This document shows positions 6,403 to 55,477 of a stretch of 64,000 bases of DNA, in pieces. The DNA is from Naegleria gruberi. Its lineage: Eukaryota. A model generated the notes under the pieces. It ran no database searches and was not told the origin of the DNA. It saw only the letters and a list, made by a program, of their open reading frames with translations. The position numbers and the translations under genes were made by a program. Within the stretch, counting starts at the first letter, position 1. Each line of letters opens with the position of its first letter. The DNA is taken from the NCBI GenBank assembly GCA_000004985.1, contig GG738846.1, one strand, 5' to 3'.

Positions 6403-7922
6403 CTAATCATTCGTTCTTGCAGTGGAAGGTGTATTAAATCTACTGACCATACTGGCCAAAGAGTTGTTCAACTTTGGTTGTTCTCTACTGGCTCTTAGAG
6501 GTGAAGTGACTTCACTGGTTGGGGCAGTTGTTTTTGAAGTCTTATTTGGAATTCCATTTATCTTGTCAAATAAAATTCGTAATACCTTTTCTTTTTCCTG
6601 CCATGAAAGAGAGGTGAAGGATGTATTATTTGGTGTTTCATTAGGAATGGTTGGAGTTTTTGAAATTGGGGGTAATACTACCTGAGAGTCTTCTTTGGCA
6701 TAAGTCACAACATTGGATTGACTCTTAATCTGCTCCTTTACTGAACCTAGGGCTTCGTTAAAAAACATTTCCAATTCTGTTCGTTGCTCAAGAAGACGTT
6801 TACCAATTTTTCGTAAATGTGCCAATTCTCTATTTCTCAATTGCACAATTTTTGTCAACTCTTCCTTTCCCTTCTCCAAATCTTTGACTTGATTTTCATA
6901 TTTTTCTTTCAAAATTTTCTTTTCCTCCTTAAATCTTTTTTCAATATCGACCATTACTTTTTCATTATCATATTTGTGATTCATTGTTCTCAATTCTTTA
7001 GAAAGCGAAAAACATTGTTTTGTATATTCTTTCAGCAAATCCTTGTTCATTTCTATTGTTCGGGAGAGGGTTTTGTTTTCCTGTTTGAATTGTTCCTTTT
7101 CTGAGGAACATTCCAATAATTGTTGTTCAGTCTCTTCTAATTTTAATTTCAACACTATATTTTCCTGGTATATTGATCTACTCTTTTCGTCAATTAGTTG
7201 AAGCGCTCGCTCTTCAACTTCCTTTTCAAACTGCTCTTGGAGACCATTCTCCTCCTTTCTTGATCTAATGGTTTCTCTAATAAATAATTGCTTTGATTTG
7301 GTTAGTTCAGAATCAAAAAACTTTCTTATTTGTTCATTTTCTTGTTCCTTCTCCTTATACAGTTTTTTCAATTTTTCCAACTCTTTCTATATTTATAGCT
7401 TAGAATAAGCATGTTACATTGCTCACTTACTTGAATATCATCCTTCTGATTGAGTCCTTTTTCTAACAAGCTCAATTCTGATGTTTTAGTTAGCAATTCC
7501 TGACTAAATTCTAGCTTCATTTCTTCTATTTGTATTTCTAGTTTTGAAATTTGGGATTTATGTTGTTGGTTTGATTCTGCATTCTCTTTTTGGAGCTGAA
7601 GAATAGTTTTGTTTTTTAACTCTAAATCTTTTCTTAAAAAGTTGGTCACTTGAATCTGGTAATATTGAATACGTAGTAAATTCGTGATCAAATTATCGGA
7701 GAACTAACTTACAGTCTCGGACTCTCTTTGCTTTAATTCTTCCTTAAAAGCTTCATGTTCTTGTTTTAATTTTTCATAGGCTTCCTTATAGGCAAGAAAT
7801 GTTTTAATTTTCGATTTTAAACCCTCAACTTCTAGAATTTTATTTTGTAATTCCTCTTGTGATTGACGAACTATGTCCTCCAAAGAGGGAGGAGGTGGTT
7901 GCTCATTACGTTTTGGAGGCAT
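6403..7922 (-). CDS. Coiled-coil protein, about 3 exons (ORF blocks 7922..7704, 7691..7368, 7380..6403), function unknown, possibly cilium/basal-body associated
   Basis: Start MPPKRNEQPPPP at 7922. Long heptad-rich E/K/Q sequence throughout. C-terminal motifs TELEMFFNEALGSVKEQIKSQ and LSWQEKEKVLRILFDKINGIP are reminiscent of ciliary coiled-coil proteins (family not pinned down). Exon junctions not resolved precisely. Confidence 0.45.
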
Positions 7923-16040: not shown

Positions 16041-16137
16041 ATACTTTTTAAAAGTCAACTGCCTTACGTGAAAGTTTATTTTTGACCATTGTTGTATTGT
16101 AGTTGTTCCCGCCAATGTTTTGCACAAAATAAAAAAA

Positions 16138-19100
16138 ATGCTAAACAATGGTATGTTGATTAATGTTTGCCATTGTATTCATGACTTTATAGCCTGGCAA
16201 CAGCCGTACGTAAACCTAGTAAAATTATGCTCCGAGAAGGGGAAACAACATTCTTGTGAAGGAGGAGTTACGCAAGAGATGGATCGAGACATCGGAAGAA
16301 CAGTATTCAGAATTAAAGGTTCTGTGCCATCAAATAACTATATTTCCTTTCCATCATCTATTCCTAAAAATAAGGGTGATGTGCTTGGTTTAATTGGTCA
16401 ATTTTGTTACGTAGAGTTGAGAGCTAATAGGGATGTATTTGTATTTCATGTTGAGATTATGACTAAGGATGAATTAACCTTTAGATTTTCTTTCGGAAAC
16501 ATTTCCAAACAATTCAAAGTAAGTTATCAAAGAGATCTCTTGTTTTAATTTCAATTAGAAAACTCATAATTCAATTTTCATACCCGTTGATTATCTGTCC
16601 GAGAGTTGGACTGTGCTTGCCATAGATTTTAAAGCTCTTGTTCAGACACACCTAGATAAAGTATTCAAATGTATTAGAGGCATAATTACTTGTTCAAACC
16701 TGTCATTGAAGAATGTATACACAAGTGACAATATCTATTCTACGGACACACTTACTAAAGACATGTTTCTTCCAGTTCCAAAAGGAAGTAGTTGGACTGA
16801 TCTTTATGAATGGCATTGGATTCCATCAGAACCAACAAATATCAAATTAGCATGTATTATTGACCCTCAAACTCTTAAAAAGCCTTCAACTAGTTTTAAT
16901 ACAAGTAGGACTTCATCAATTGGATCCGCCAACTCTAGACGATCAAAAATTACTGGTGTTTCTAATAAGAGTATGCTGACACCTTCTCCAATTTTGGATA
17001 TCAAACGTTTTATTGGATACAATTGTTACTATAATTCCAACTTGTGTTGGACTTTGGATTCAAATTACTGTATTTTCCCAAGTGGCTCATCAATTATCAA
17101 AATGGAAGTAGCTACAGGTAAGTAATTCTTTGATGGTGATGCTGAAAAATAATAGGAACCCAAACTGCTTTTCAAGGTCATACCCAATCCATCACCTCTA
17201 TTTGTACAGATTACAAATGTAGTATTATAGCAAGTATTCAGAATAATATTCCTCTGATTAGGTTATGGGATATCGAATCTGGGAGATGTTTATCTGTTTT
17301 AAAAGGTCAAGAGACTGAAATTAGTTGTGTTTGCATATCTGATAGTGGGAATGTAATGGTAACAATTGGAAAAGATAAATCTCTAAAGACTCAGTTTATT
17401 ATTTGGGATATTTCAAATATTAGAGATTCTGGTGAAGATGTTCCTATTATTTCTAAATATGTATGCGATTATTCAGTTCAAAAGGTCAAATTTGCTCCCA
17501 ATGAAGAAACTAAATTTGTTACTTGTGGAATGGAAAATATTAGATTGTGGAGATTGAAAGGTGGAATAGTTAGAGGTTGTTCACTCTCTCTGGAAAACTA
17601 TAGTCTAACAAAACAAAACTTTCTTGATATTGCTTTCGAAAAGGCATTTCTTTCTCCTCATGTAAGTATTTCAGGTTGATGAAACTTAAATGTTATTCTT
17701 AGTTAGGAGACAAAGACCACAGATTCTACTTAGGAACCGAATCAGGTGCTATTTATCAAGTAAATTATAATAAGAGAATAATAGAGTGTGTATTCCAACT
17801 TCATAACAGTGCAATCAATACTCTCTACATTAATGAAGGAATTTGTATTACAGGATCTGCTGATAAGTTTGTTAGAGTTTGGCCCCTAGATTTCTCTGAT
17901 TTTTTCATAGAGGCTGAATTGGAAAACTCTGTCACCAGTGTTGTGACATCTAAGGATGGATTCAAAGCTCTTATAGGAGACTCAAATGGATCTATTGGAA
18001 TTTTGGAAATAAGTACTCAGATCTACAGATCAGTACTACGATCTCACACAAAAACTGTTTTGGACGTAGTTAGTGATCCTAGTAGAATGGAGTTTGCTTC
18101 TGTGTCTCTTGATAGAACAATCAGAATTTGGGATCTTACAACTTTAAATCAAAAATATCAATTCGATATTGACGGAGAGAGCCCAATTTGTGTGGACTAC
18201 CACAAGACAGAGTACATGATAGCATGTGGATTCGAGTCTGGTATTGTAAGAATCTTTGAAGTCAACACAACCCAAGTTCTCGAAGAGTACAAGGCACACT
18301 TGTCTGATGTATTGGCCATAGCATACACATTTGATTCCAAGTGGCTAATCACCTCTTCCAAAGAATCTATTTGTATCTCAGATACCAAACACATGTACCA
18401 ACCCGTCAAGGTTATTCCCTACACATGTGAATGCAAAAGGGTGTGTTTATCATTGAGCAGAGATGGAAGATTCTTTGCATTTATTGGACCAAATAGAAAT
18501 ATTATACATGTGTACAGCTGTAAAGACTTTGAAGAAGTTTATATTTTCGAAACTCCAACCGACTTGTTCGAAGGAATAGTCTTTTCCTCTGATTCTAAGG
18601 AAATAATTGCATCCACTTCAGACAACAAGCTAATGGCCATTTGTTTGGAAAAAGGAGAAATTATTTCAGAAACTGTAAGTAGGTCGATTAGTTTGAAATT
18701 TACATCTTTATCAAAGGAATATTCAAGTAAAAACTATGCTGTAACACTAGACACAAGTCAAAATGGAAAATATTTAGTTACTGGAGGTGACGATAAATTA
18801 ATAAGGGTCTGGAACTCGAAAGACTTGGCCAACTTTAGCTGTCAAAAATTTGTTGGTCATTCTGGAGAAATTAAGAAGGTTCTTTTCAGTTCAGATTATG
18901 GTCATGTCATTAGTTGCGGAGATAATGGTATAATTGTTTGGAACTTCTTAGGAGACAAATCAAGAGATATTAATCTAATGATCGAAACACACTTGGAAAG
19001 AAAGATGATGGAAAAGAAAAAAAAGGAAGATTTTGAAGTTGATGATTTACCAAATAGATATAATGATCTTTTCTCTAAAGCTTTAGAGGAAAAGATGAGA

Positions 19101-21284
19101 CATGATATTGAGACACTTAAAGATGATCCTGCTGTTAAGGAAGATCCAAAAGAGGATCCTAAAACAACCACTTTACCGTCAAATGAACATAATAAGAATA
19201 TCATTACACCATTCAGACAATATAAGCTAAATAGACCTATCTCAAGAGTAACTGTGCGCGACAGAAATATGCCCACTGAAAACCCCTGCCTTAAATTAGG
19301 AAGAATTACTGGATATAATGGAAATGCCAGAGAGAACTTGATTTGGGATGAACCAAACAAACGTTTGATTTACACATCTGGAAATGTTATTATTATTGAA
19401 GATATCTTGACCAGACACCAACAATATCTTTTCGGTCATGAACATGAAATTAATGCACTAGCAATCCACCCAAACGGAAAAATATTGGCATCGTGTGGTG
19501 GGGTAAAAGGAATTACAATGGATTCACCAATTTTGTTTTGGAGTCTGGAAACAAACTCTGCTTTCAAGAAATTAGATTACCACAGATGGGGTGTTTTGGC
19601 AATGGACTTTTCTTATGACGGAAAGTATTTTGTTAGTGTTGGCGTCAATGAATATGATGAGAAAAACGTACTGGCTGTATGGTCTGTAGAAACTGGAAAA
19701 ATGATTGTTAATGCTATGGTTTCAGAGATAATCCATGCTGTAAAATGGTTTCCAACCTCTCCTTCATCAGAGTTTATTACCACAGGCAAAAATTCCATCA
19801 TTTTTTGGTATTTGAATCCAGAAGGGCAATTGCTAATGTCTCCAGCTAAGGTTGATGAAACATATGTGATAAGTGGAAATAGAGATGGAGAAACTATTAC
19901 TCACTATTCTTGCATTGGATTTAGTGAAGACTATAGAAGTGCTTGGGTTGGCTCAACACAAGGCTCAATTTATTGTTTTAATATTGAGACAAATGAACTC
20001 GAGTTCAAGTGGGTGGATGCTCACGATTCTGAGGTAGATTATGTTTATTGGAGGAAAAACACTGTTATCACAGCAGGAACAGACTGCCAAATCAAGAGGT
20101 GGAAGGTTAGCAAAAAAGACAAAATCTATACCATGATACTCAGGGAGCAAATGGAAGTTGATACACCAATTACTTCTGCTTATTTTGATAATGACAAGTG
20201 TAATCAAGGAGTAGTTGGAACGGCATCTGGAACTATTTGGTATATTAATTGGGAGCAGCAACAGTGCATTAGATTGATCAGTTGCCATTCAAATTTTGTT
20301 ACAGGAATTGTAAAGGTTAATGACTATCTTACTTCATGCTCTCATGATGGTTCTCTACGTATTTGGTCCAGAGTTGATGAAAATCAAGTAGTATCCTATA
20401 ACCAAATTCTTGAACTAAAGAGAGGAGAGACTAATCCCACCCCTGCACTCTGTATGTGTAACAGTACAACTAGTAACCTTGTAGCAGTAGGATTTTTGGA
20501 TGGATCGATCTATATTAATTATCTTAATGATCTCGAAAATGTTTTAAAGAACAAGATAAGACCTCATGAAGAAGCAATAACATGTATAGCTCTAACACCA
20601 AGCAACAGAATCATCACAGGAAGTGCAGGTGGTTTAATTACTATTGTTGATAATTTAGTTAATATTTCAGAAGATACCTCACTGGCACCTACAGAATTTT
20701 TGGAAAATAGATTTGTATTTATCAAGGAGTTTTTAGGTCACAGATTATGTTCTCTTGATTATGATGCTAAATCAAGACGATTTGTAAATACAACTGCCAC
20801 AGGCCTCGTGTCTGTTTGGAATGAGAATGACTTGTCTCAAGTTGCCAAGTTTGCCCCACATATTTATACCAGAAAGGTTGCAGAAAAGGAAAAGTATGAA
20901 GTGGATATCATTGCCAAATTCTCTCCTTTTGATTCAGATTTATTATTGATTACTGCTCCTTCTAAAGGTACCCCCAAGATTGAGTTTTACAATTATAAGA
21001 GGGAATATTGTGTTAAAGTTGTCGACTTGAATAGATTTGTCAGTTGTTTTGCTGTGTCTGTAAAACACAAATTAATTGCATTTGGTTCTAGAGAAAGAAT
21101 GGTAGCTATAATGGACTATGATAGTGGTGAGTTTGAAGAATATGAAGCTCATGGAGATTGTGTTAAATCTATCATGTTCGATGATACTACCGATCAAGTC
21201 TTATCCTCTGGGTTTTCTGATTTGGTTGTGTGGAAAGTCGGCTCATCAAGACCATCAGGTAAAAATATCAACACAACAAACTAA
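16138..21284 (+). CDS. WDR90: WDR90/POC16 orthologue (N-terminal CFAP20/DUF667 domain + many WD40 repeats), 4 exons: 16138..16518, 16604..17117, 17156..17661, 17704..21284
   Basis: CFAP20-like domain: GRTVFRIKGSVPSNNYISFPSS...LGLIGQFCYVELRANRDVFVFHVEIMTKDELTFRFSFGNISKQFK | SWTVLAIDFKALVQTHLDKVFKCIRGIITCSNLSLKNVYTSDNIY...FLPVPKGSSWTDLY aligns block-for-block with the human WDR90 N-terminus. WD40 region: IRLWDIESGRCLSVLKG, FVRVWPLDFSDFFIEAE, RTIRIWDLTTLNQ, etc. Introns 85, 38 and 42 nt. Confidence 0.85.
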
Positions 21285-23028: not shown

Positions 23029-24661
23029 TTATTTTCTCTTCAGATTAAAATAGGAAAAAATTGGGTTACCAAGAACTGGTTCTTTTGGAATGGTAACTGT
23101 TTGATTTTGAGGTTGATAACCATCCTTTGATACTTGAATAGTAAAGGTTCCAGGAGGTAACAATCTCCAGAAAAATCCATTAGAATTAGAATTAATAATC
23201 TTTGCATTATTAATTACAGTTACATTAGCTCCAATAACTGCATTTCCAATATCATCTGAAACAATACCAACTGCAGAATACTTCAATTGATCCATATAAG
23301 CAATTAGAGCGTCCTTATTTTGATCCCAATATCCATCTAAGTGATCTTCAGGAGCAATATACTCCTCAGTCAACTCTAAAGTAAGTTCATAACAATTAGC
23401 TCCAAAGTAATTATAATCGGCCATGGAATGTCTGAATAAAATTCGAATTAATCTAAAAATGAAAAAGAAAAGCTTACCTAACAACCCACCATTGGGCACC
23501 ATTGGTAATACCTCCTGGGAATCTCTTACTCAAGTGCATAACAGTGTTAGTGTCTGCATAAACTGATGCAACTTGTTTGAAGAAGGTATCATCAGGTGTG
23601 GCAGAATAATTACAATCCTTTGACAAGGCAGTATCGAAAGGATAGTTAGCAACAACTACACCTCCATGTAGATTGGCTGACAAAATAAATGATTCCTTTG
23701 AAATCCAGTTCAAAACTGCAATAGTTTCTGGTTGGAATGGATCATCAGGCTTACCAAAATAAAAGTCTGGGAAGTTTCTATTCAAATCAACACCGTTTGC
23801 ATTTCTTCTTTGTTTAAGCTCATAACCATCAGGGTTCATAGATGGCATAATATAAACATCCATATAATCAAGAATGGAAGTTACTCTTACATCACCAGCA
23901 TTATACAAGTTCAAGAGATATTCAATAAAATAGAGAATTACTTCTCTTCCAACAGTTTCGTTACCGTGCATGTTTGCAATATATTTGAACTTTGGTTTTT
24001 CATATCTCAAGTTTGTATTTGGTCTACCAATAACTTTTGTACCAAAAAGTTTCATAACCCATAATTCTCTTTGTTGGACTGATTGACCAACAGAGAAGAG
24101 TACAGATAAATGAGGATTGGCAGCGTTGAGAGCCTTCAATTTAGCTGTCATTTGCACATAGTCATGATTTGAAAGCAAATTCTTTGCTGCTCTTTTGTCA
24201 AGGGAGGATTTTCTTGTTGTGGTATTGAATAATCTTTTAACAATGATTGGAGTCTTGCTCTTACTTTCTGCATTAATTTCATCAATTTGATGTTCCAATC
24301 TGTGTACTTGATTTTCATTCTTCATTTCAACAATGAACATTCTTTCTTTTTGTAATTGTTGAGCGAGAGATGAAAGAAAGTCATTTCCATTCCCAATTAA
24401 CATCTTGTCGAGTGGTTTTCTAATTCTAATAGAGGCCTTATCAAACATTTTTGCGTGTCTTCCTTCAACAAAAACTTTTTCTAATTCTTGTCTATTTAAT
24501 CCCATTACTAGTACAGAAAATTCAGACAACATTCCTGCACTGCTAGTGCCCGTATGTAATGTTATCTTTGTAGAGGATGAGTGAATTAAAATCATCACGG
24601 TCATCATCATTATTATGCCCTTCATCAGATGCACTGATGAAAATCGTTGTTGTTGTTTCAT
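23029..24661 (-). CDS. Secreted zinc carboxypeptidase, M14B (CPD/CPE/CPN-like) with C-terminal transthyretin-like regulatory domain, 2 exons: 24661..23478, 23431..23029
   Basis: Signal peptide MKQQQRFSSVHLMKGIIMMMTVMILIHSSS. Zn-binding/catalytic blocks YIANMHGNETVGREVILYFIEYL, NANGVDLNRNFPDFYFG, MNPDGYE. TTR-like domain GIVSDDIGNAVIGANVTVIN...GFFWRLLPPGTFTIQVSKDGYQPQNQTVTIP. Intron 23432..23477 (GTAAGC...TTCAG). Confidence 0.8.
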
Positions 24662-25119
24662 TGGTTCTGTGAAAGAAACGAGAATCTCTCTTTGTTATCC
24701 CGAGTTGTTTATGACGGAGCGGTTTGTTGTTCTTTTTTCTGAGCAATTTGTTTGAAAATTACAATCTAAGCTCTGCTCAGAGCTAGGACTCCACAACAAT
24801 TCGGAAGCAATTACCAAATTATTATTGCTAATGAAATAATTGGAAGCGTGTTTACAAAATTTGGCTCCTTCAGGAGTTAACAACTCCCTTAAAAATCTTG
24901 AACGTTTGTCTCAGTTAATAAAAGAAACAATAAGTTTCCAATGACATTCAATTTTTAATCTTCGTCTGAAAATTATCAAATCCAATAATTGACCAATAGG
25001 ATACCTACATATTAACCAAACAAGTATTGATATTTTGCTTTTTGTTTGCCTTTAAGTTTTTAACAACAGGTTAAATGAATTATTTATTCTATTTAAATTT
25101 TAAATAATTCTATTTAAAA
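24662..25119. promoter_or_regulatory. Largest intergenic region in the window (458 bp), divergent promoters of carboxypeptidase (minus) and SAC3/GANP gene (plus)
   Basis: No ORF or RNA-gene signature. Contains a perfect short hairpin aagctctgctcagagctagg (about 24762..24781). Confidence 0.3.
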
Positions 25120-28100
25120 ATGCCACCAAGAGAAGCAAGAGGAAATTCCAACCCATCATCTGGCTCTTCTCGATACCACAGATCATTTAAGAATACATCG
25201 GATAATACCGATGAACAACAACATAAACCTTCAAGAGGGAATTATAGAGGGGGATATAGAGGAAACTCTCGTTCAAATTCTTCTTCAAGAACAGAGGAAA
25301 CAAATGACACAAACACACAAAAATCGACTTCTCACAGAGGAGGACACAATACACAAAGAGGACCTTACATACCAAGAAATTCAGAGGATTTATCGGAAGG
25401 TTTACCTAAAACAAGAGTTAAGCCATACAAACCTGGTTTTATTAAAAAACAAAAATCCGAAACACTTCCCAATTTTCAAATAGTAGCAAGAAATGATGAA
25501 GATGAGGAAAGTTCACAAACATCAAATAGGACAAAAAAACAACCATTTAAAAAACCGAATCCAAAAGATTTAGTTTGGGAAAGATCTGCTGAAAGAGATG
25601 ATGAGCAGGCTCCAAAACCTCCAAAACAAACTTTTCAAAAACAACCATTTAAAAAACCGAACCCAAAAGATTTGGTTTGGGAAAGGCCTGCTGAAAGAGA
25701 TGATGAACAGATTCCAAAACAAAAATTAAAGAAACAACCATTTAAAAAACCGAATCCAAAAGATTTGGTTTGGGAAAGGCCTCCCGAAAAGGATAATCAA
25801 AGATTTAAAGAAGGAAAAAATCTACATTTACAAATTTTCAAATAGTAGCAAATAATGACGACAAGGACGAGGAGCAAAATACTCAAAAACCACATAGAAA
25901 GCAACCATTTCAAAAACCAAATCCAAAAGATTTAGTTTGGGAAAGGCCTGCTGAAAGAGATGATGAACAGATTCCAAAACAAACTTTCCAAAAACAACCA
26001 TTTAAAAAACCGAATCCTAAAGATTTGGTTTGGGAAAGACCTGTAGATAAGGATGAGCCAACTCTAACAAATAGAATTGCAAAAAAACAACCATTTAAAA
26101 AACCAAATCCAAAAGATTTAGTTTGGGAAAGGCCTGCTGAGAGAGACGATGAGCAGGCTCCAAAACAAACTTTTCAAAAACAACCATTTAAAAAACCGAA
26201 TCCAAAAGATTTGGTTTGGGAAAGGCCTGCTGAAAGAGATGATGAAGAATCCGAACACTCTCATACACCATCTGGAATTCACAAATATTTAGATGATTTA
26301 TCACATGGCCCAAATATATTTACCCTACCACAAGGATTTTCTGGATTTGGCTCTTACAGAGATTCTAATTTACCAGATAATAATTTATTCGAAATTTCTA
26401 AACCAAAAATTGTAAATATCAACGAGGATGAAGAGGATAATATAATCAAATCTGACGAGAAAGGGGTATTATTTGAGGATGAAGAACAAGACGAAGAGTA
26501 TTATGTAGAAAAAGACCAAACAGACAATGAGCAAGATGAAGAGGATAATCATGACGAGGAAGATCAAGAAGAAGACTATAATAATTTTGTTATTGAAAGA
26601 AAATCTTCCTCATCGTATGATGAAAACGACAGTGAAAGACAAATCCTAACAATTCCCCCTAAAACACATGAAAAGAATGAAAAGGACATTATCTACTCGA
26701 AACTGAAAACTATGGAATCAAAGACAAAAATTTGGGAAAAAAGCTATCCAATCAAGGCTAACTCAATTATTGGTACATGTCAGGACAAATGCCCAAAACA
26801 AGAGATTACCAACAGAGAAAAGGATAACGATCTCAGTTTATTTGAAAAGACAGGAAAGATCATTATAGACGAGCATGGTATTAAGATGTACAAAGCAGAT
26901 CCTAATGCTTGCGTGAAAAAGTATGCCAGATCTGCTGCAGCCGTTCATGCTGATCCTTCACTAATTCGTCCTCCTCTAATACTCAAGAAAACATTGGAAT
27001 ATTTGACCCATAATATTTTAGAACGTAAAGAAGAGTATCATACTATATATTTTTTTATTAGAGACAGAGCTAGAAGTATTATCCAAGACCTAACAATACA
27101 AGACATCAGAGATGAACGAAGTGTAGACTTACATGAAATAATTTCAAGGTTTCACATAATGAGTCATCACTTACTAGCAGATGTAGGAGAAGAATTATCA
27201 GATCCTCATCAAAATCTTGAATTAATGAGCAAATGGCTTAAAAGCTTACAGGAGCTCTATTTTGAATTAAGATCTAATGGAATTGAATGTCCAAATGAGT
27301 CAGAGTTCACTGCTTACTATATACTTGTAAAGATTACTTCAGATCAAGAAGTTGCCAAGTGTTTGAGAAACCTTCCTTCCAAAGTCAGCAAGTCTCCAGA
27401 GGTATTGTTCGCCCTTAAGGTTTACGGAGCATTTTCTACTAAAAATTATGTACGATATTTTGAATTGGTCAAGCAAGCAAGTTACCTAAGTGCATGTCTA
27501 ATGCACATGTATTTTGCACATATCAGAGAAGAAGCTCTCAGAATTATGAATACAGCATTTAATATTAAGGTCACTGATATTTCCAAGGCTGGTAGATATC
27601 CAATATCTAAACTCGTAGATATTTTGGCATTTGAAACTAAAGGAGAGTGCACAGATTTTTGCAAAGCCCACGGTATTTATATTGACGGGGATGATGTATT
27701 ATTCAAATACTCCACGTTCGTAACACCTGACAAGAAAATCAAATCAAAGAGGTCATTGAGGTTGATTGAATCAAAGGTTGCTGGCATTAGATACTCTGAT
27801 CTTGTAAATTTAAATTTTCGGATAGCTCCAGAACCTTCCAAAACACCGCCGAAAGAATTAGAAACTAAAATCAATGAGTCACCTCAGAAAATCGAGATAA
27901 TCAATCCACCAACTCAAGTGCAAATAGTTCCTCCAGCTTCCCAACCAAAACCACCAACACCTGCTCTTATTCAGAGTGCTATTCCAAAGGAAGTAATAAG
28001 AGAACCTGAAACAAAAATACCATTGGTAACTCAGCAACCACCATCTAGGTATGATGTTCCACATGTCAATCCACCCTCCACTTTTGTTCCACCCAAACCA

Positions 28101-30176
28101 ACTACACAAGAAAATAGACCAATCTTTCCTCCAATTGTTTTTAGTCCTTCCCAGATGCCACCTTTTAACATAATCAAGTCACCAAATCCTCCAATTCCAC
28201 CTACTCTAATTCAACCACAACCACCTGTAGCTTTTAAAACTCAATCACATAGAAACGAAATTTCTATTGATCCCTTGATTCCTCAAATCCCAGTCTCCCC
28301 AATTAAACCCCTAGGTCCGACTGAGGAGGAAACCAAAAAAGAACTGAAAAGCAAATATTTTTCATTATTGAAGAAATATGCAGAAAGGAAAAAGAGAATT
28401 CGTGCAAGTAGGAAACAACACATCAGCAATGCAATGGACTTTGTACTCCAAGAAAATATTATGTCAGATGATTATGAAGAAGATCAATCAATGTGCAAAT
28501 ATTACAAACACATATTCAAGAAGAGATATCTCAGCCAATTATACCAACCTCTTGACTTGGCTTCTCTTATCTTTAATTCACCTGTTACTGACAAGATTGA
28601 TACATTTTTCAGCTTTTTTTGGAAACTAATGATAGTACCAGGAACAAACAGCACTCATCTTAATGAATGGATTGCGGCAAAATTTTCTCGCCCAAATAGT
28701 GATGACTATTTGTGTAATTTTATAGTAAACGGTAAGGACGTGGATTCCCTACCAAGACCCAAGAAAAACACAGAACTACATATTTGTGCACGAACCCCCA
28801 AAGACTCAAGGTCATGGAGAGGTACTTCCTCAATAATTTTCATATTGGATAATCCCAACAATACCGATTTACAGACATATTTCTCACTAGAAAAAAAGAG
28901 GTTACACCAACATTTTTCAAATTTAGGCTTATTTAATGATACTCATATCCCTATTCTAATTCTCTTTGATAAGAGCTGGTTTCACAATAGCAGTGAAAAT
29001 ATGCTAAAGGAGCATTTCCTTCACATTATCTATGAAGATTTTAAATGCTTTTCAAATGTGGAATATGTAGGCATTAATTTTACTCACCTACTAAACTTTC
29101 CCTCATCAGAAGAAATTGCTATTTTAAATCAAGTTTTAGAAAATTACACCTTGTGGCTTGCAAATAACTCCTCCGATCCACCTCTTCTCCACACATATTC
29201 TATTAGAGATTTGATAGAAGAAACAACTTTTTCACACATTCGAAAATTGTTGATCGATATTGATCCAAATGCTAGAAATGGTATAACTGTTAAGGATTTG
29301 ATACTTGTATACAATGATGTGTGTGAATCGCTATCCCATCAGACTATTTCAGAGACTGAAAGAATGAGAAAACTAAATTGGCCAGCTCCAGAGTTTGAAA
29401 AGTATTGCGATTGGAACACAGATGAAAATGCAATACTTCAAAAAGAGCTTTTAGGTCAATTATCATTACCAACCATTGATCTAACTCTCTACAACTCTAA
29501 ACATATTGTTGACAATTTGTATAGCTCATGTAAGCAGTATGTGACAACCCTGTATACAAAACGTAAGATTTATCATCCAGCCATTTCCAGTCAATCCATC
29601 AAGCAGTTGGTTAAGGAACTTGTTAACGGTGGTGGATATGCTGCTAGTATCAAAATCTTTGAAATGTTCATTGAGATACATTTAACCTTGCTCTTTGATA
29701 AGGATCCACTTTATAGTTTTGTTTTCACCACAGCAGAATTCAAAAGTATTGCCAATTCAGTTTTGGAGAGGCTCAGATATAGCTCAAACCCATTCATCGA
29801 ATCGTCATTAAGGGCTTCGTATGGGTTAAAAATGTCTCTCAATTCAGACAAGACTAATTTTGAGACTTTTAGAAATCTTAAACGTATTATCAAAGAATCC
29901 ACTCAAGAAAAAAACCAAGATTGTAAGAAGAGAAAACTTGTTACCTATATTGATATTAATCAATGTATAGGGATGCACACCCAATTATCAAACAAAATTA
30001 GTGAGCAAAGAAGTCTATTTTCTCATCTCGAATCAGCCCCATCCGATCTTAGTTACCACTCTATTGTAGATACAGATATGAGTGACACAGTATCCACCAG
30101 TGACAGTTGTCAGTCCTGCATTGATTCCCTCAAATTACTACAAGAAAAACTTGAAATGTATAGAAAGGGTATTTAA
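25120..30176 (+). CDS. SAC3/GANP-domain protein (mRNA export / TREX-2 scaffold family) with N-terminal tandem-repeat region; frame discontinuity near 25806..25845
   Basis: SAC3/GANP homology CQDKCPKQEITNREKDNDLSLFEKTGKIIIDEHGIKMYKADPNACVKKYARSAA...IRPPLILKKTLEYLTHNIL...YHTIYFFIRDRARSIIQDLTIQD. Long proline-rich and C-terminal regions. ORFs 25120..25845 and 26025..30176 carry the same repeat family in different frames. Confidence 0.6.
25490..26245 (+). repeat. Coding tandem repeat: about 87-bp (29-aa) units KKQPFKKPNPKDLVWERPAERDDEQ[AI]PKQTFQ, at least 7 copies, embedded in an about 370-bp higher-order duplication
   Basis: Repeated DNA motif aaacaaccatttaaaaaaccgaatccaaaagatttggtttgggaaaggcctgctgaaagagatgatgaacag seen at about 25540, 25650, 25740, 25905, 25990, 26085, 26180. 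Flanking NFQIVARNDEDEE (25470) vs FQIVANNDDKDEE (25835) shows the larger unit duplication. Confidence 0.85.
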
Positions 30177-30184
30177 TAAAGTGC

Positions 30185-31420
30185 TCAGATTTTGAACGTT
30201 TGGTAAATATTTTCCTTATTGAGTTCAGTTAGAGGAGACAATCCACTTGTCATATCAACCGATTTTGTTTGTTTTTGTTTTTCAAATTCTGTCTTTTCTT
30301 TAAGGAAAGCCAATCTTTCTTTTTCTAATTGTTTTTCCTTTTCTTCTAATTTTTCTTCCTTCTTCTTTATGAATTGTTCTCTTTTTTCTAATGCCTTTTC
30401 TTTTTCCTTGAGGATCTTGTAGCGTTGTTTGATATAGGTATCGAAAATATTAAATCTCACAATAGATGTTTCACAAATTTCAACAATGGAAATTCTTTTT
30501 TTTGGCTTCAATTAAATGTAAGAGGTTGGTAGTTGAAACACTATACTTACATCTACACAAATCATTCTATTGATTAATTCAGAAACCTCCTTACTGTAAC
30601 AAGATGGAATTGGATTGAATTTTCCAGCTGCAATCTTCTTTTCAAGTAACACAGCATTTGGAGCTTTAAAAGGAGGCTCCAAGGTGCACAACTCATACAA
30701 AATACATCCCAGAGACCAGATATCACAACTTTCGTCATACCCTTGATCACTCAATTGATCTGACAATAATTCAGGAGGCATATAGTAAGGTGTTCCAAGT
30801 CTTGTGTGAGCAAACTTTGATTGGTCCGATAAAATTCTTGCCAATCCAAAATCACCCAACTTTACATTCAAATCTTTATCCAAGAAAATATTTCCTGGTT
30901 TCAAATCTCTATGAATAACTTTTCCACTCTTTCTTGTGTGACATTCTTTTAATGCACAACAAACTTCGGAAAAGATTTTCAGAACTGTTGCTTCTTCAAT
31001 TTTACCAGATGTTTTCTTAATGGATTGTATAAATTTACCCAAATCTCCACCCTCACAGCACTCCATCAAAATGTACAATTTTCTCTTGTTTTTATCAATG
31101 TACCTATTAAAATATTTAACTATATTCTTGTTTTCCAAATCTTTGAGAATGTTAACCTCTAAATAAATGTATGTTTTTTATCACCCTCAAGTCTCTTACT
31201 TACCAGTGACTATTAATTGCTTTTCCTTCTCCGACATTCGGCCATAATCAATCTCTTTCCACACATATATCCTATGATCCTTCTTGGATTTAACCTTATA
31301 CTTTTTATAGGGATAGAATTATAGTTAAAATTTATGGAAATGATTTAAACCTACCACACTTCCAAAGCTACCATGCCCTAATTGTTCTACAACATCAAAA
31401 TCGGCTAATCCTGTCTCCAT
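30185..31420 (-). CDS. NEK2: NIMA-related kinase NEK2 orthologue, 4 exons: 31420..31355, 31301..31204, 31158..30551, 30504..30185; exon 2 carries an apparent +1 frameshift
   Basis: Exon 1 METGLADFDVVEQLGHGSFGSV (Gly loop). Exon 3 EVNILKDLENKNIVKYFNRYIDKNKRKLYILMECCEGGDL...CHTRKSGKVIHRDLKPGNIFLDKDLNVKLGDFGLARIL...GTPYYMPPE...DIWSLGCILYEL matches NEK2 (HRSDGGHTVLHRDLKPANVFLD...). C-terminal coiled coil EKEKALEKREQFIKKKEEKLEEKEKQLEKERLAFLKEK. Exon 2 reads YKVKSKKDHRIYVW then shifts frame; the conserved continuation KEIDYGRMSEKEKQLIVT is in the +1 frame (extra C in CCC at about 31258..31260). Confidence 0.75.
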
Positions 31421-53960: not shown

Positions 53961-55477
53961 ATGTCGTCATTTCTGCCTTGTTCTGGCTCTGAATATCTGA
54001 CCCTAATGACAACATGTGCTCCGGGCCTGGAAAAATCATCAGCCGACGAAATTGAAGAAAAATTAAATAATTTACGGAAGAGAAGTGACTTGGCAATTAA
54101 TATTTATCACATTTATTCAAAGTTTGAAAATATTGATGATGATAATTTCAAGGAAATTATTAGAATATTTCAGAGGCGAGATATCAAGTCAATGCTGCAA
54201 GGAAAAATTATTATTCAATTCCATTTTTCTTCCACCTCTGAGAAATTGAAAATATCTGTATTTAATGAAACTATTTCCTCACTTCTTGAATGTCTATCAA
54301 TTGTCAAAATTCACATTCTAGTTTATGTTTTGGAAAATCTTTCTTTTCCCTCTTCAAGTACTTCCACTCAGGAAAAATCCTCTCCAAACGATTCAACTGG
54401 AGATAGTTTTGAAGAAAAAGAAAGAGAATGGGCTAGAAGATTGAAAAATGATCCAAACTTTAATTATTTTTTGGAATGCCATCAACATGCATTGCCAGAA
54501 AGCAAATGTTGGAAAGAATCGTTAGAAAAGTGGGTTGACATGAGAAATATATTATTTGAAAATTCCACAAAAGATAAAATAACAAGTGTGGAGGCACTTA
54601 AATTCAGAATCACATCAAGAAGGTTTGTTTCATTTGATGTTCTAATTTATTAACTAAATTAAGGTCTGGACAACATAACTTCAAATCGAGTGATATGTTA
54701 TCGTGGTTTGGATTATTGGTATCTCACAAGTTAATGGGTGAGGAGATTAGCAACATTGGAAAAACTTGGAAAGCAGATTTAACAAATTATGATCTCGATA
54801 TTTTTCAAATCCTCTACAATGATACTCTCTTTCTCTCATTCACTCTGTGTGAGGAAACCATTTGTTTACAAACGTTTTCTAAACAATTCAAAAATGAATT
54901 GTTCTTAAACTCAACATCTTTGAGACCCAATATTGCTTTTGGATTAATTAATCTTGCAAATATCAAAAAAGGAGATGTATTTTGTGATATCTGCTCTGGT
55001 ACTGGAATAATTTCACTGATGGCTTTACACTTATTTAAAAATAATATTCAAATTATTTCTGGAGAATTATCTGAGGAAATTTTACAGAACCACCTAATCA
55101 ACAATATTGACAATTACAGGTATTCAAATAATACAATACAACCTCTGAAATGGGACTTCACTCGCCTCCCTTTAAAAACAGCCACTGTTGACGTCATTTG
55201 CTCAAATTTACCTTTCGGAAAGCAGATTGGATCACATTCATTAAATAAGGAAATTTACCCTCCCATGTTTTCAGAATTATGCAGGGTTTTGAGACCTGAA
55301 GGAAGAATTGTTATTCTCACATCTGAAAAACACTTGATGCAAAAAGTTCTACAAGAAAATAAGGTATTCATATCATTTTTTTCACGAATTTCTATTCATC
55401 AAGGTGGTTCAGATGTTTTTGTTTACATTCTCACAAGAAAAAGTAAAGCATTTTTTGTAAAGAAACAAAAACAATAA
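53961..55477 (+). CDS. THUMP-domain RNA methyltransferase (THUMPD2/THUMPD3-like, tRNA guanine-N2 MTase family), 2 exons: 53961..about 54629, about 54678..55477
   Basis: THUMP end KFRITSRR|SGQHNFKSSDMLSWFGLLVSHKL...ADLTNYDLDIF (spliced; intron GTTTGT...TTAAG). Class I MTase motifs GDVFCDICSGTGIISLMA, VDVICSNLPFGKQIGS, LRPEGRIVILTSE. Confidence 0.65.

Follow-up and report, generated by a model that had tools for sequence, protein, structure and literature searches.

At one locus of Naegleria gruberi, a tandem array of charged protein repeats ahead of a SAC3/GANP domain begins in one reading frame and ends in another, which raises the question of whether the two parts belong to one gene and, if so, how they are joined. 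The locus lies in a 64,000-nucleotide stretch of contig GG738846.1 of N. gruberi NEG-M (here called the window), which has 33% GC, uses the standard genetic code and is dense in long open reading frames (ORFs) split by very short GT-AG introns. Positions are those of the window, and all features described are on the plus strand. The explanation that we favor, with a probability of roughly 60% as a whole, is that the two ORFs are one gene, the N. gruberi orthologue of the TREX-2 scaffold Sac3/GANP, with a continuous frame of ~1685 aa, a deficit of one base in an A run, a spurious intron in the public gene model and a lineage-specific array of putative docking repeats.

Two open reading frames and one SAC3 domain

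The upstream ORF, in frame 1, extends from the ATG at 25120 to 25845 (241 codons plus TAG) and encodes an RG-rich N-terminus, a first leader (NFQIVARNDEDEE) and repeats R1 to R3; it has no Pfam match. The downstream open frame, in frame 0, covers 25809 to 30176 (1455 codons plus the TAA at 30176) and contains a second leader, repeats R4 to R7, an FG patch, an acidic tract, the SAC3_GANP domain, a Pro-rich region and a C-terminal region. The FG patch, GFSGFGS at 26334-26354, is the sole FG motif in the protein. The SAC3_GANP domain, of the PCI fold, lies at 26790-27683 and matches PF03399 over profile positions 2-287 of 289 (E = 1.9e-91; 306.9 bits, compared to a Pfam gathering cutoff of 27). 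The solved structures nearest to it are human GANP chains (E ~1e-56) and yeast Sac3 (E ~3e-30). When the frame is repaired as described below, the top match of the full-length protein is “SAC/GANP domain-containing protein [Naegleria gruberi]” of strain NEG-M (P0001, 1652 aa, EFC50016.1 / XP_002682760.1).

The first in-frame ATG of frame 0 is at 26712, and R4 to R7 are thus translatable only as a continuation of the upstream ORF. Two adjacent genes are ruled out, since frame 0 runs for 301 codons without an ATG and yet encodes four conserved repeats. A nonstandard code in which TAA or TAG is read as sense is likewise ruled out by ORFs of 1000-1455 codons that lack both triplets and by genes that end in TAA.

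Organization of the repeat array

The original prediction described at least seven tandem units of 87 bp, or 29 aa. Seven units are indeed present, of which frame 1 holds three and frame 0 holds four, but the period is in fact 93 bp (31 aa); the 87 nt correspond to the conserved core only. Repeat copies were called with TRF among other methods, and the units start at 25537, 25639, 25732, 25899, 25992, 26085 and 26178, giving spacings of 102, 93, 167, 93, 93 and 93 nt. Identity to the first copy is 72-94% over the 87-nt core. The encoded unit consists of KQPFKKPNPKDLVWERP and then an acidic tail, most often AERDDEQ(A/I)PKQTFQ, with the DLVWER core in frame 1 in copies 1 to 3 and in frame 0 in copies 4 to 7. 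R1 (25537-25638) is the longest unit, at 102 bp and 34 aa (KQPFKKPNPKDLVWERSAERDDEQAPKPPKQTFQ); it is followed by R2 (25639-25731, 31 aa) and R3 (25732-25811, KQPFKKPNPKDLVWERPPEKDNQRFKE), which the public model cuts after KDL. The downstream group consists of R4 (25899-25991), R5 (25992-26084), which has a divergent tail (PVDKDEPTLTNRIAK), and R6 (26085-26177), all of 31 aa, and of R7 (26178-26270), which is conserved to ~26246.

A leader of the form ..KS.T..NFQIVA.ND..DEE.. precedes each group of units, at 25443-25536 in frame 1 for block 1 (KKQKSETLPNFQIVARNDEDEESSQTSNRTK) and at 25812-25898 in frame 0 for block 2 (RKKSTFTNFQIVANNDDKDEEQNTQKPHR). The leader segment 25462-25508 recurs at 25824-25870 with 79% identity and an offset of 362, and the 201 nt at 25600-25800 have a second copy, 80% identical, at 25860-26060. 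Because 362 is 363 minus 1, the second block is shifted by -1 relative to the first, and the predicted higher-order duplication with a 1-nt shift is borne out as a recurrence of the leader together with its repeats. The seven 31-aa units would have arisen by tandem duplication first and then by duplication of a block made of the leader and three units.

The identities between individual units, for example, 91% for R4 and R6, 89% for R2 and R4, and 86% for R1 and R6, do not follow a simple block order, and this departure suggests later conversion or unequal exchange among the units.

When the 17 codons of the core are compared over the seven copies, eight columns vary; six of the eight fall at third codon positions, each of them synonymous. 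Codon pairs that differ across the break comprise 27 synonymous and 7 nonsynonymous pairs. Judged from these codon differences, amino-acid constraint acts on both sides of the break, on each side in its own frame. The combination of repeats, duplication and frame break is no chance pattern.

The frame break and its position

The frame break itself is as originally described. Upstream of the break, frame 0 is closed by a TAA at 25806-25808; it is open from 25809 onward, and a TAG at 25843-25845 ends frame 1, which leaves an overlap of 34 nt (25809-25842). Homology to block 1 confines the change of frame to ~25809-25832, and within this interval lies a run of six A residues (25815-25820) followed by T (25815-25821), where we propose that one base is lacking. 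With one more A in the run there is a single ORF of 1685 aa in which block 2 is aligned with block 1; the junction with seven A residues reads RFKEGKKSTFTNFQIVANNDDKDEE and is collinear with GFIKKQKSETLPNFQIVARNDEDEE in block 1.

An intron, a genuine frameshift or an indel had been offered as explanations of the break, with repeat collapse named as one source of error. This was the right set, and among its members the indel fits best, whereas the intron and repeat collapse are disfavored. From the sequence, the most likely cause is an indel of one base, whether an allelic variant or a consensus error. The functional reading frame would then be continuous, with no splice junction; the A6 run should be A7, or an equivalent extra nucleotide should lie elsewhere within 25809-25832. 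Either the assembly consensus would be wrong at the missing base, or the alleles would differ there. The extra base is itself deduced from the homology of the two blocks, which would fit a sequencing error and an allelic or strain-specific indel alike.

Repeat collapse is an unlikely cause: the break falls in the unique leader between the arrays, and collapse is disfavored also because a collapse between in-register copies would keep the frame.

Throughout the 64 kb, every other junction between same-strand ORFs of 100 codons or more proved to be a canonical short intron or a gene boundary. This break is therefore the only unexplained within-gene frame break in the window, which we count against the indel explanation, since an assembly with a single such break is not generally error-prone. 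An isolated break is what one would expect from a single variant or from a consensus error of the occasional kind, rather than from a poor assembly.

The intron of the public gene model

Translation from the ATG at 25120 after removal of 25768-25865 reproduces XP_002682760.1 residue for residue, so that the public model joins the two frames by an intron of 98 nt (GTTTGG...GACAAG). It has a GT at 25768 and an AG at 25864-25865, and its length, 2 modulo 3, restores an open frame. Were the model right, this would be a real but atypical spliceosomal intron, and the product would be a 1652-aa protein in which repeat 3 is truncated and the second leader is lost. The borders, the length modulo 3, the restored frame and the exact agreement with XP_002682760.1 all speak for this reading, as does an intron in the window with a GTTTGT donor, by which GTTTGG is a poor donor but not an impossible one.

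For comparison we used 29 curated introns and the one intron with a GTTTGT donor (54623-54663), all from the same 64-kb window. The donors of these 30 introns are GTAAGT in 17, GTATGT in 4, GTAATT and GTAGGT in 3 each, GTAAGC in 2 and GTTTGT in 1, so that 29 of 30 are of the GTA type; GTTTGG does not match the consensus GTA(A/T/G)(G/T)(T/C), and the G at its position +6 is found in none of the 30. Its donor score, equaled or exceeded by 46% of exonic GT sites, is -2.8 bits, compared to at least 4.9 bits for the 29 introns under leave-one-out scoring; donors partly guided the choice of the curated set, which makes these donor statistics somewhat circular but leaves the arguments from length, composition, branch motif and coding homology unaffected. 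A donor-blind criterion, the lowest interior GC among frame-joining candidates, mostly selected short introns with GTAAGT- or GTATGT-type donors. Window introns are 37-63 nt long (n = 30; median of 43 in the curated 29), compared to 98 nt for the public-model intron, and its GC content of 0.32 is close to that of the gene (0.35) and above the mean of the 29 window introns (0.24). A YTRAY motif is found near the 3' end of 22 of the 30 window introns, compared to 25% of exonic windows, and there is no such branch-like motif in the whole 98 nt.

Other splice sites do not offer a better junction. There is no GTA-type donor anywhere in 25100-26300 and no U12-type donor ([AG]TATCCT) in 25400-25900. 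When all GT/GC...AG intervals of 20-400 nt that join both frames without a stop were enumerated, none had a normal donor; the only options were GTTTGG, which lies on the V-W codons of the repeat, GTAGCA, GTTCAC and GC.

The DNA inside the public-model intron also retains coding homology, in two frames. Its first 45 nt encode VWERPPEKDNQRFKE in frame 1, with VWERP codons that match most of the other copies, and in frame 0 its last 51 nt give KKSTFTNFQIVANNDDK, a homologue of the block 1 leader, which is exonic; the interval thus holds the VWERP of repeat 3, which is invariant, as well as the duplicate of the NFQIVA leader. Moreover, GTTTGGGAAAG, the sequence at the proposed donor, is present in all six other repeats and is never treated as a donor there. 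The public-model intron looks spurious because its donor, length, GC content, branch motif and coding homology are all unfavorable, and we regard a real intron at this position as unlikely. It would instead be a device of the gene predictor for stepping over the frameshift, one that wrongly deletes 33 codons. The two models imply different peptides: STFTNFQIVANNDDK, DLVWERPPEK and VWERPPEK from the continuous ORF, and KPNPKDLDEEQNTQKPHR, with a KPNPKDL-DEEQNTQK junction, from the intron model.

Genomic lesion or recoding as alternatives

The break could instead be a fixed genomic frameshift that has damaged the gene, in which case the product initiated at 25120 would stop at 25845 as a repeat fragment of 241 aa, and the SAC3 part would either be missing or be translated from a start farther downstream. 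NEG-M is a clonal laboratory strain with a long history in culture, the break is present in the sequence as given, and the first ATG of frame 0, at 26712, lies upstream of the start of the SAC3 domain at 26790, all of which would suit a lesion of this kind. Set against it, leader 2 and R4 to R7 are free of stops and conserved in amino acid sequence in frame 0 over ~900 nt ahead of the ATG at 26712, so that any fixed lesion would have to be very recent, and the remaining frame of 1455 codons is intact. A damaged gene seems to us about as improbable as a real intron.

Recoding would leave the genome as it is and would have part of the product made either by -1 ribosomal frameshifting on A_AAA_AAT (25815-25821) or by addition of an A through polymerase slippage on GGAAAAAA. 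The frame-1 reading at the site, GGA_AAA_AAT, does include a slippery heptamer of the canonical X_XXY_YYZ form, in the correct frame and exactly at the frame change that the homology requires, and the shift needed is -1. However, there are 15 in-frame heptamers of this form in this A-rich gene, and the chance of one in the overlap of ~12 codons is ~0.1. No stable structure is predicted for the 100 nt downstream (minimum free energy [MFE] of -4.6 kcal/mol, z = 0.15 relative to shuffled sequences), no stimulatory stem-loop was found 5-9 nt 3' of the heptamer by MFE folding of nested secondary structure, and a run of six A residues is short for polymerase slippage. We therefore consider a contribution of recoding to the product to be quite improbable, and a correct genome whose full-length Sac3/GANP is made only by -1 recoding at GGA_AAA_AAT, whether by frameshifting or by A insertion, to be slightly more so. 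If the latter were true, GGA_AAA_AAT would set how much of the repeat-only fragment of 241 aa is made relative to the full TREX-2 scaffold, and a free-living protist would provide a rare example of a cellular housekeeping gene subject to programmed recoding.

Comparison with N. lovaniensis and other homologues

The N. lovaniensis orthologue is C9374_002733 (XP_044550279.1; P0006), which is 39% identical to the N. gruberi protein over the SAC3 domain and the C-terminal part. Both proteins have the same order of elements, namely, an RG-rich N-terminus, PKTR.KPY, a GFSGFGSY patch, an acidic tract and the SAC3 domain, which in N. lovaniensis are contained in one uninterrupted exon of 1290 codons. 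The upstream N. gruberi ORF on its own has no significant similarity to the N. lovaniensis N-terminus (E = 1.1). The N. gruberi array is flanked by PKTRVKPYKPGF and the FG patch; the distance from PKTRGTKPY to the FG patch is ~300 aa in N. gruberi, compared to ~75 unrelated aa in N. lovaniensis, which has no DLVWERP repeat at all.

The N. lovaniensis gene model carries an artifact of the kind that we propose for N. gruberi. An 83-nt “intron” at L004:6871 excises DNA that encodes QNEVERTRKINWPIPEFEKENW in another frame, homologous to SETERMRKLNWPAPEFEKYCDW of N. gruberi. This intron is demonstrably spurious and bridges a frameshift, and such artifacts thus do occur in Naegleria annotations. The public-model intron of N. 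gruberi resembles the frameshift-bridging pseudo-introns of automated eukaryote annotation in being a GT-AG interval, with a length that is not a multiple of three, that lies over a break and removes sequence with coding homology. It differs in lying inside a repeat array, and so it hides one repeat core, but it would be the same kind of artifact.

Homologues came mostly from an exhaustive search of 1.84 billion representatives, with the best 150 matches listed. A hidden Markov model (HMM) built from the seven units found no repeat in N. lovaniensis or in 152 other best SAC3 homologues among the matches listed. KVWTRP in one homologue (P0007), considered as a possible single ancestral motif, did not reach significance when scored with the repeat HMM. 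Metagenomes scanned for GATTTRGTTTGGGAAAGRCCT, the core of the repeat, yielded only three single, noncoding chance matches. As far as this comparison of sequences goes, the array is a lineage-specific expansion in N. gruberi, because N. lovaniensis has ~75 unrelated residues at the same place.

Character of the repeats

The N-terminal 400 aa are 37% charged, 42% P/Q/N/S/T/G and 16% hydrophobic. AlphaFold, run on the single sequence, gave no fold (pTM 0.13, mean pLDDT 59) and placed a one-turn helix at each DLVW; the repeats are disordered by this prediction. The repeat region matched no Pfam family and no solved structure, and the seven repeats each carry QPF and VW and mostly TFQ.

The N. gruberi protein shares with Sac3/GANP (MCM3AP), the TREX-2 scaffold, a SAC3_GANP PCI-fold domain in a long protein with a disordered N-terminal region before the domain, but in place of FG repeats it has one FG patch and seven charged 31-aa KQPFKKPNPKDLVWERPAERDDEQ units. 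The N-terminal region of Sac3 in Chaetomium thermophilum and yeast contains tandem motifs centered on Phe that are poorly conserved between species, with ten such motifs in Chaetomium; these fungal motifs bind Mex67 NTF2L:Mtr2, and deletion of the region causes a defect in mRNA export (PMC4509546). The N. gruberi units resemble the fungal Sac3N motifs in being tandem, in having a key aromatic residue, in lying N-terminal to the SAC3 domain and in being poorly conserved. The fungal motifs, however, are short, built on FG and separated by short linkers, while the N. gruberi units are 31 aa long and highly charged, with an invariant Trp in DLVWERP and flanking QPF and TFQ.

We infer from position and composition that the array is a putative multivalent docking region of the general Sac3N kind, since it occupies the position of fungal Sac3N and offers seven sets of QPF, VW and, mostly, TFQ in a charged disordered chain. 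By analogy with Sac3N and the N-terminal region of GANP, these short aromatic motifs may together bind weakly to an mRNA export receptor or to partners at the nuclear basket, and the repeats as a whole would be a disordered, lineage-specific expansion of a variable N-terminal region. The original prediction had held that DLVWERP repeats ahead of a SAC3/GANP domain are not a described feature of the family. This stands for the specific motif, which is undescribed (it has no Pfam or PDB match and is absent from the 153 other homologues listed), but not for the architecture, which is already known.

Implications

The immediate consequence is corrective: 33 residues are probably missing from XP_002682760.1 / EFC50016.1, among them the second leader and the whole core of one repeat. 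For the family, the array illustrates how rapidly the N-terminal docking region of Sac3 can change, with ~220 aa of repeats that bear Trp and Phe gained since the split from N. lovaniensis. If these repeats bind the export receptor, they would represent a new type of motif for that interaction.

The Sac3/GANP gene is not alone in this window in being divided between reading frames. The neighboring M14 carboxypeptidase and NEK-like kinase genes are likewise divided, in their case by canonical introns of 45 to 54 nt on the minus strand (23432-23477, 31301-31354, and 31159-31203, with donors GTAAGC, GTAGGT, and GTAAGT), and we used these introns as internal controls. Among the 30 introns of the window, the only donor that does not begin with GTA is the unusual GTTTGT of an AT-rich, 41-nt plus-strand intron (54623-54663), which has a branch-like TTAAC and an AAG acceptor and connects two ORFs of one UPF0020 methyltransferase-domain gene.

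For the Naegleria lovaniensis orthologue, C9374_002733, the public model includes an 83-nt "intron" starting at 6871 (L004:6830-7000, from N. lovaniensis PYSW02000016.1). Its DNA codes in another frame for QNEVERTRKINWPIPEFEKENW, a peptide that shares homology with the N. gruberi protein. The "intron" is spurious and bridges a frameshift in the long-read assembly.

The SAC3 homologue P0007 (EukProt "gene5386-9193_t," 1647 residues, 34% identity) has an N-terminus, at about residues 1 to 330, with abundant FxF motifs (FNF, FDF, FSF, and FQF). A single PTFQNKVWTRP segment there resembles the TFQ...VWERP portion of the N. gruberi repeat unit, but its match to the HMM built from the N. gruberi repeats was not significant. 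A homologous-protein search with two sub-queries of the Sac3/GANP gene gave zero matches and missed even the identical public protein, P0001, probably through saturation of the candidate list by low-complexity words; negatives from this search are unreliable for such sequences.

Elsewhere in the window, three introns of 38 to 41 nt link a CFA20-domain ORF with a WDR90/POC16-type multi-beta-propeller ORF of 1193 codons in one multi-exon gene (16072-21284, plus strand). This is the architecture of a flagellar/centriolar POC16/WDR90 protein, and it is consistent with the de novo assembly of basal bodies in Naegleria.
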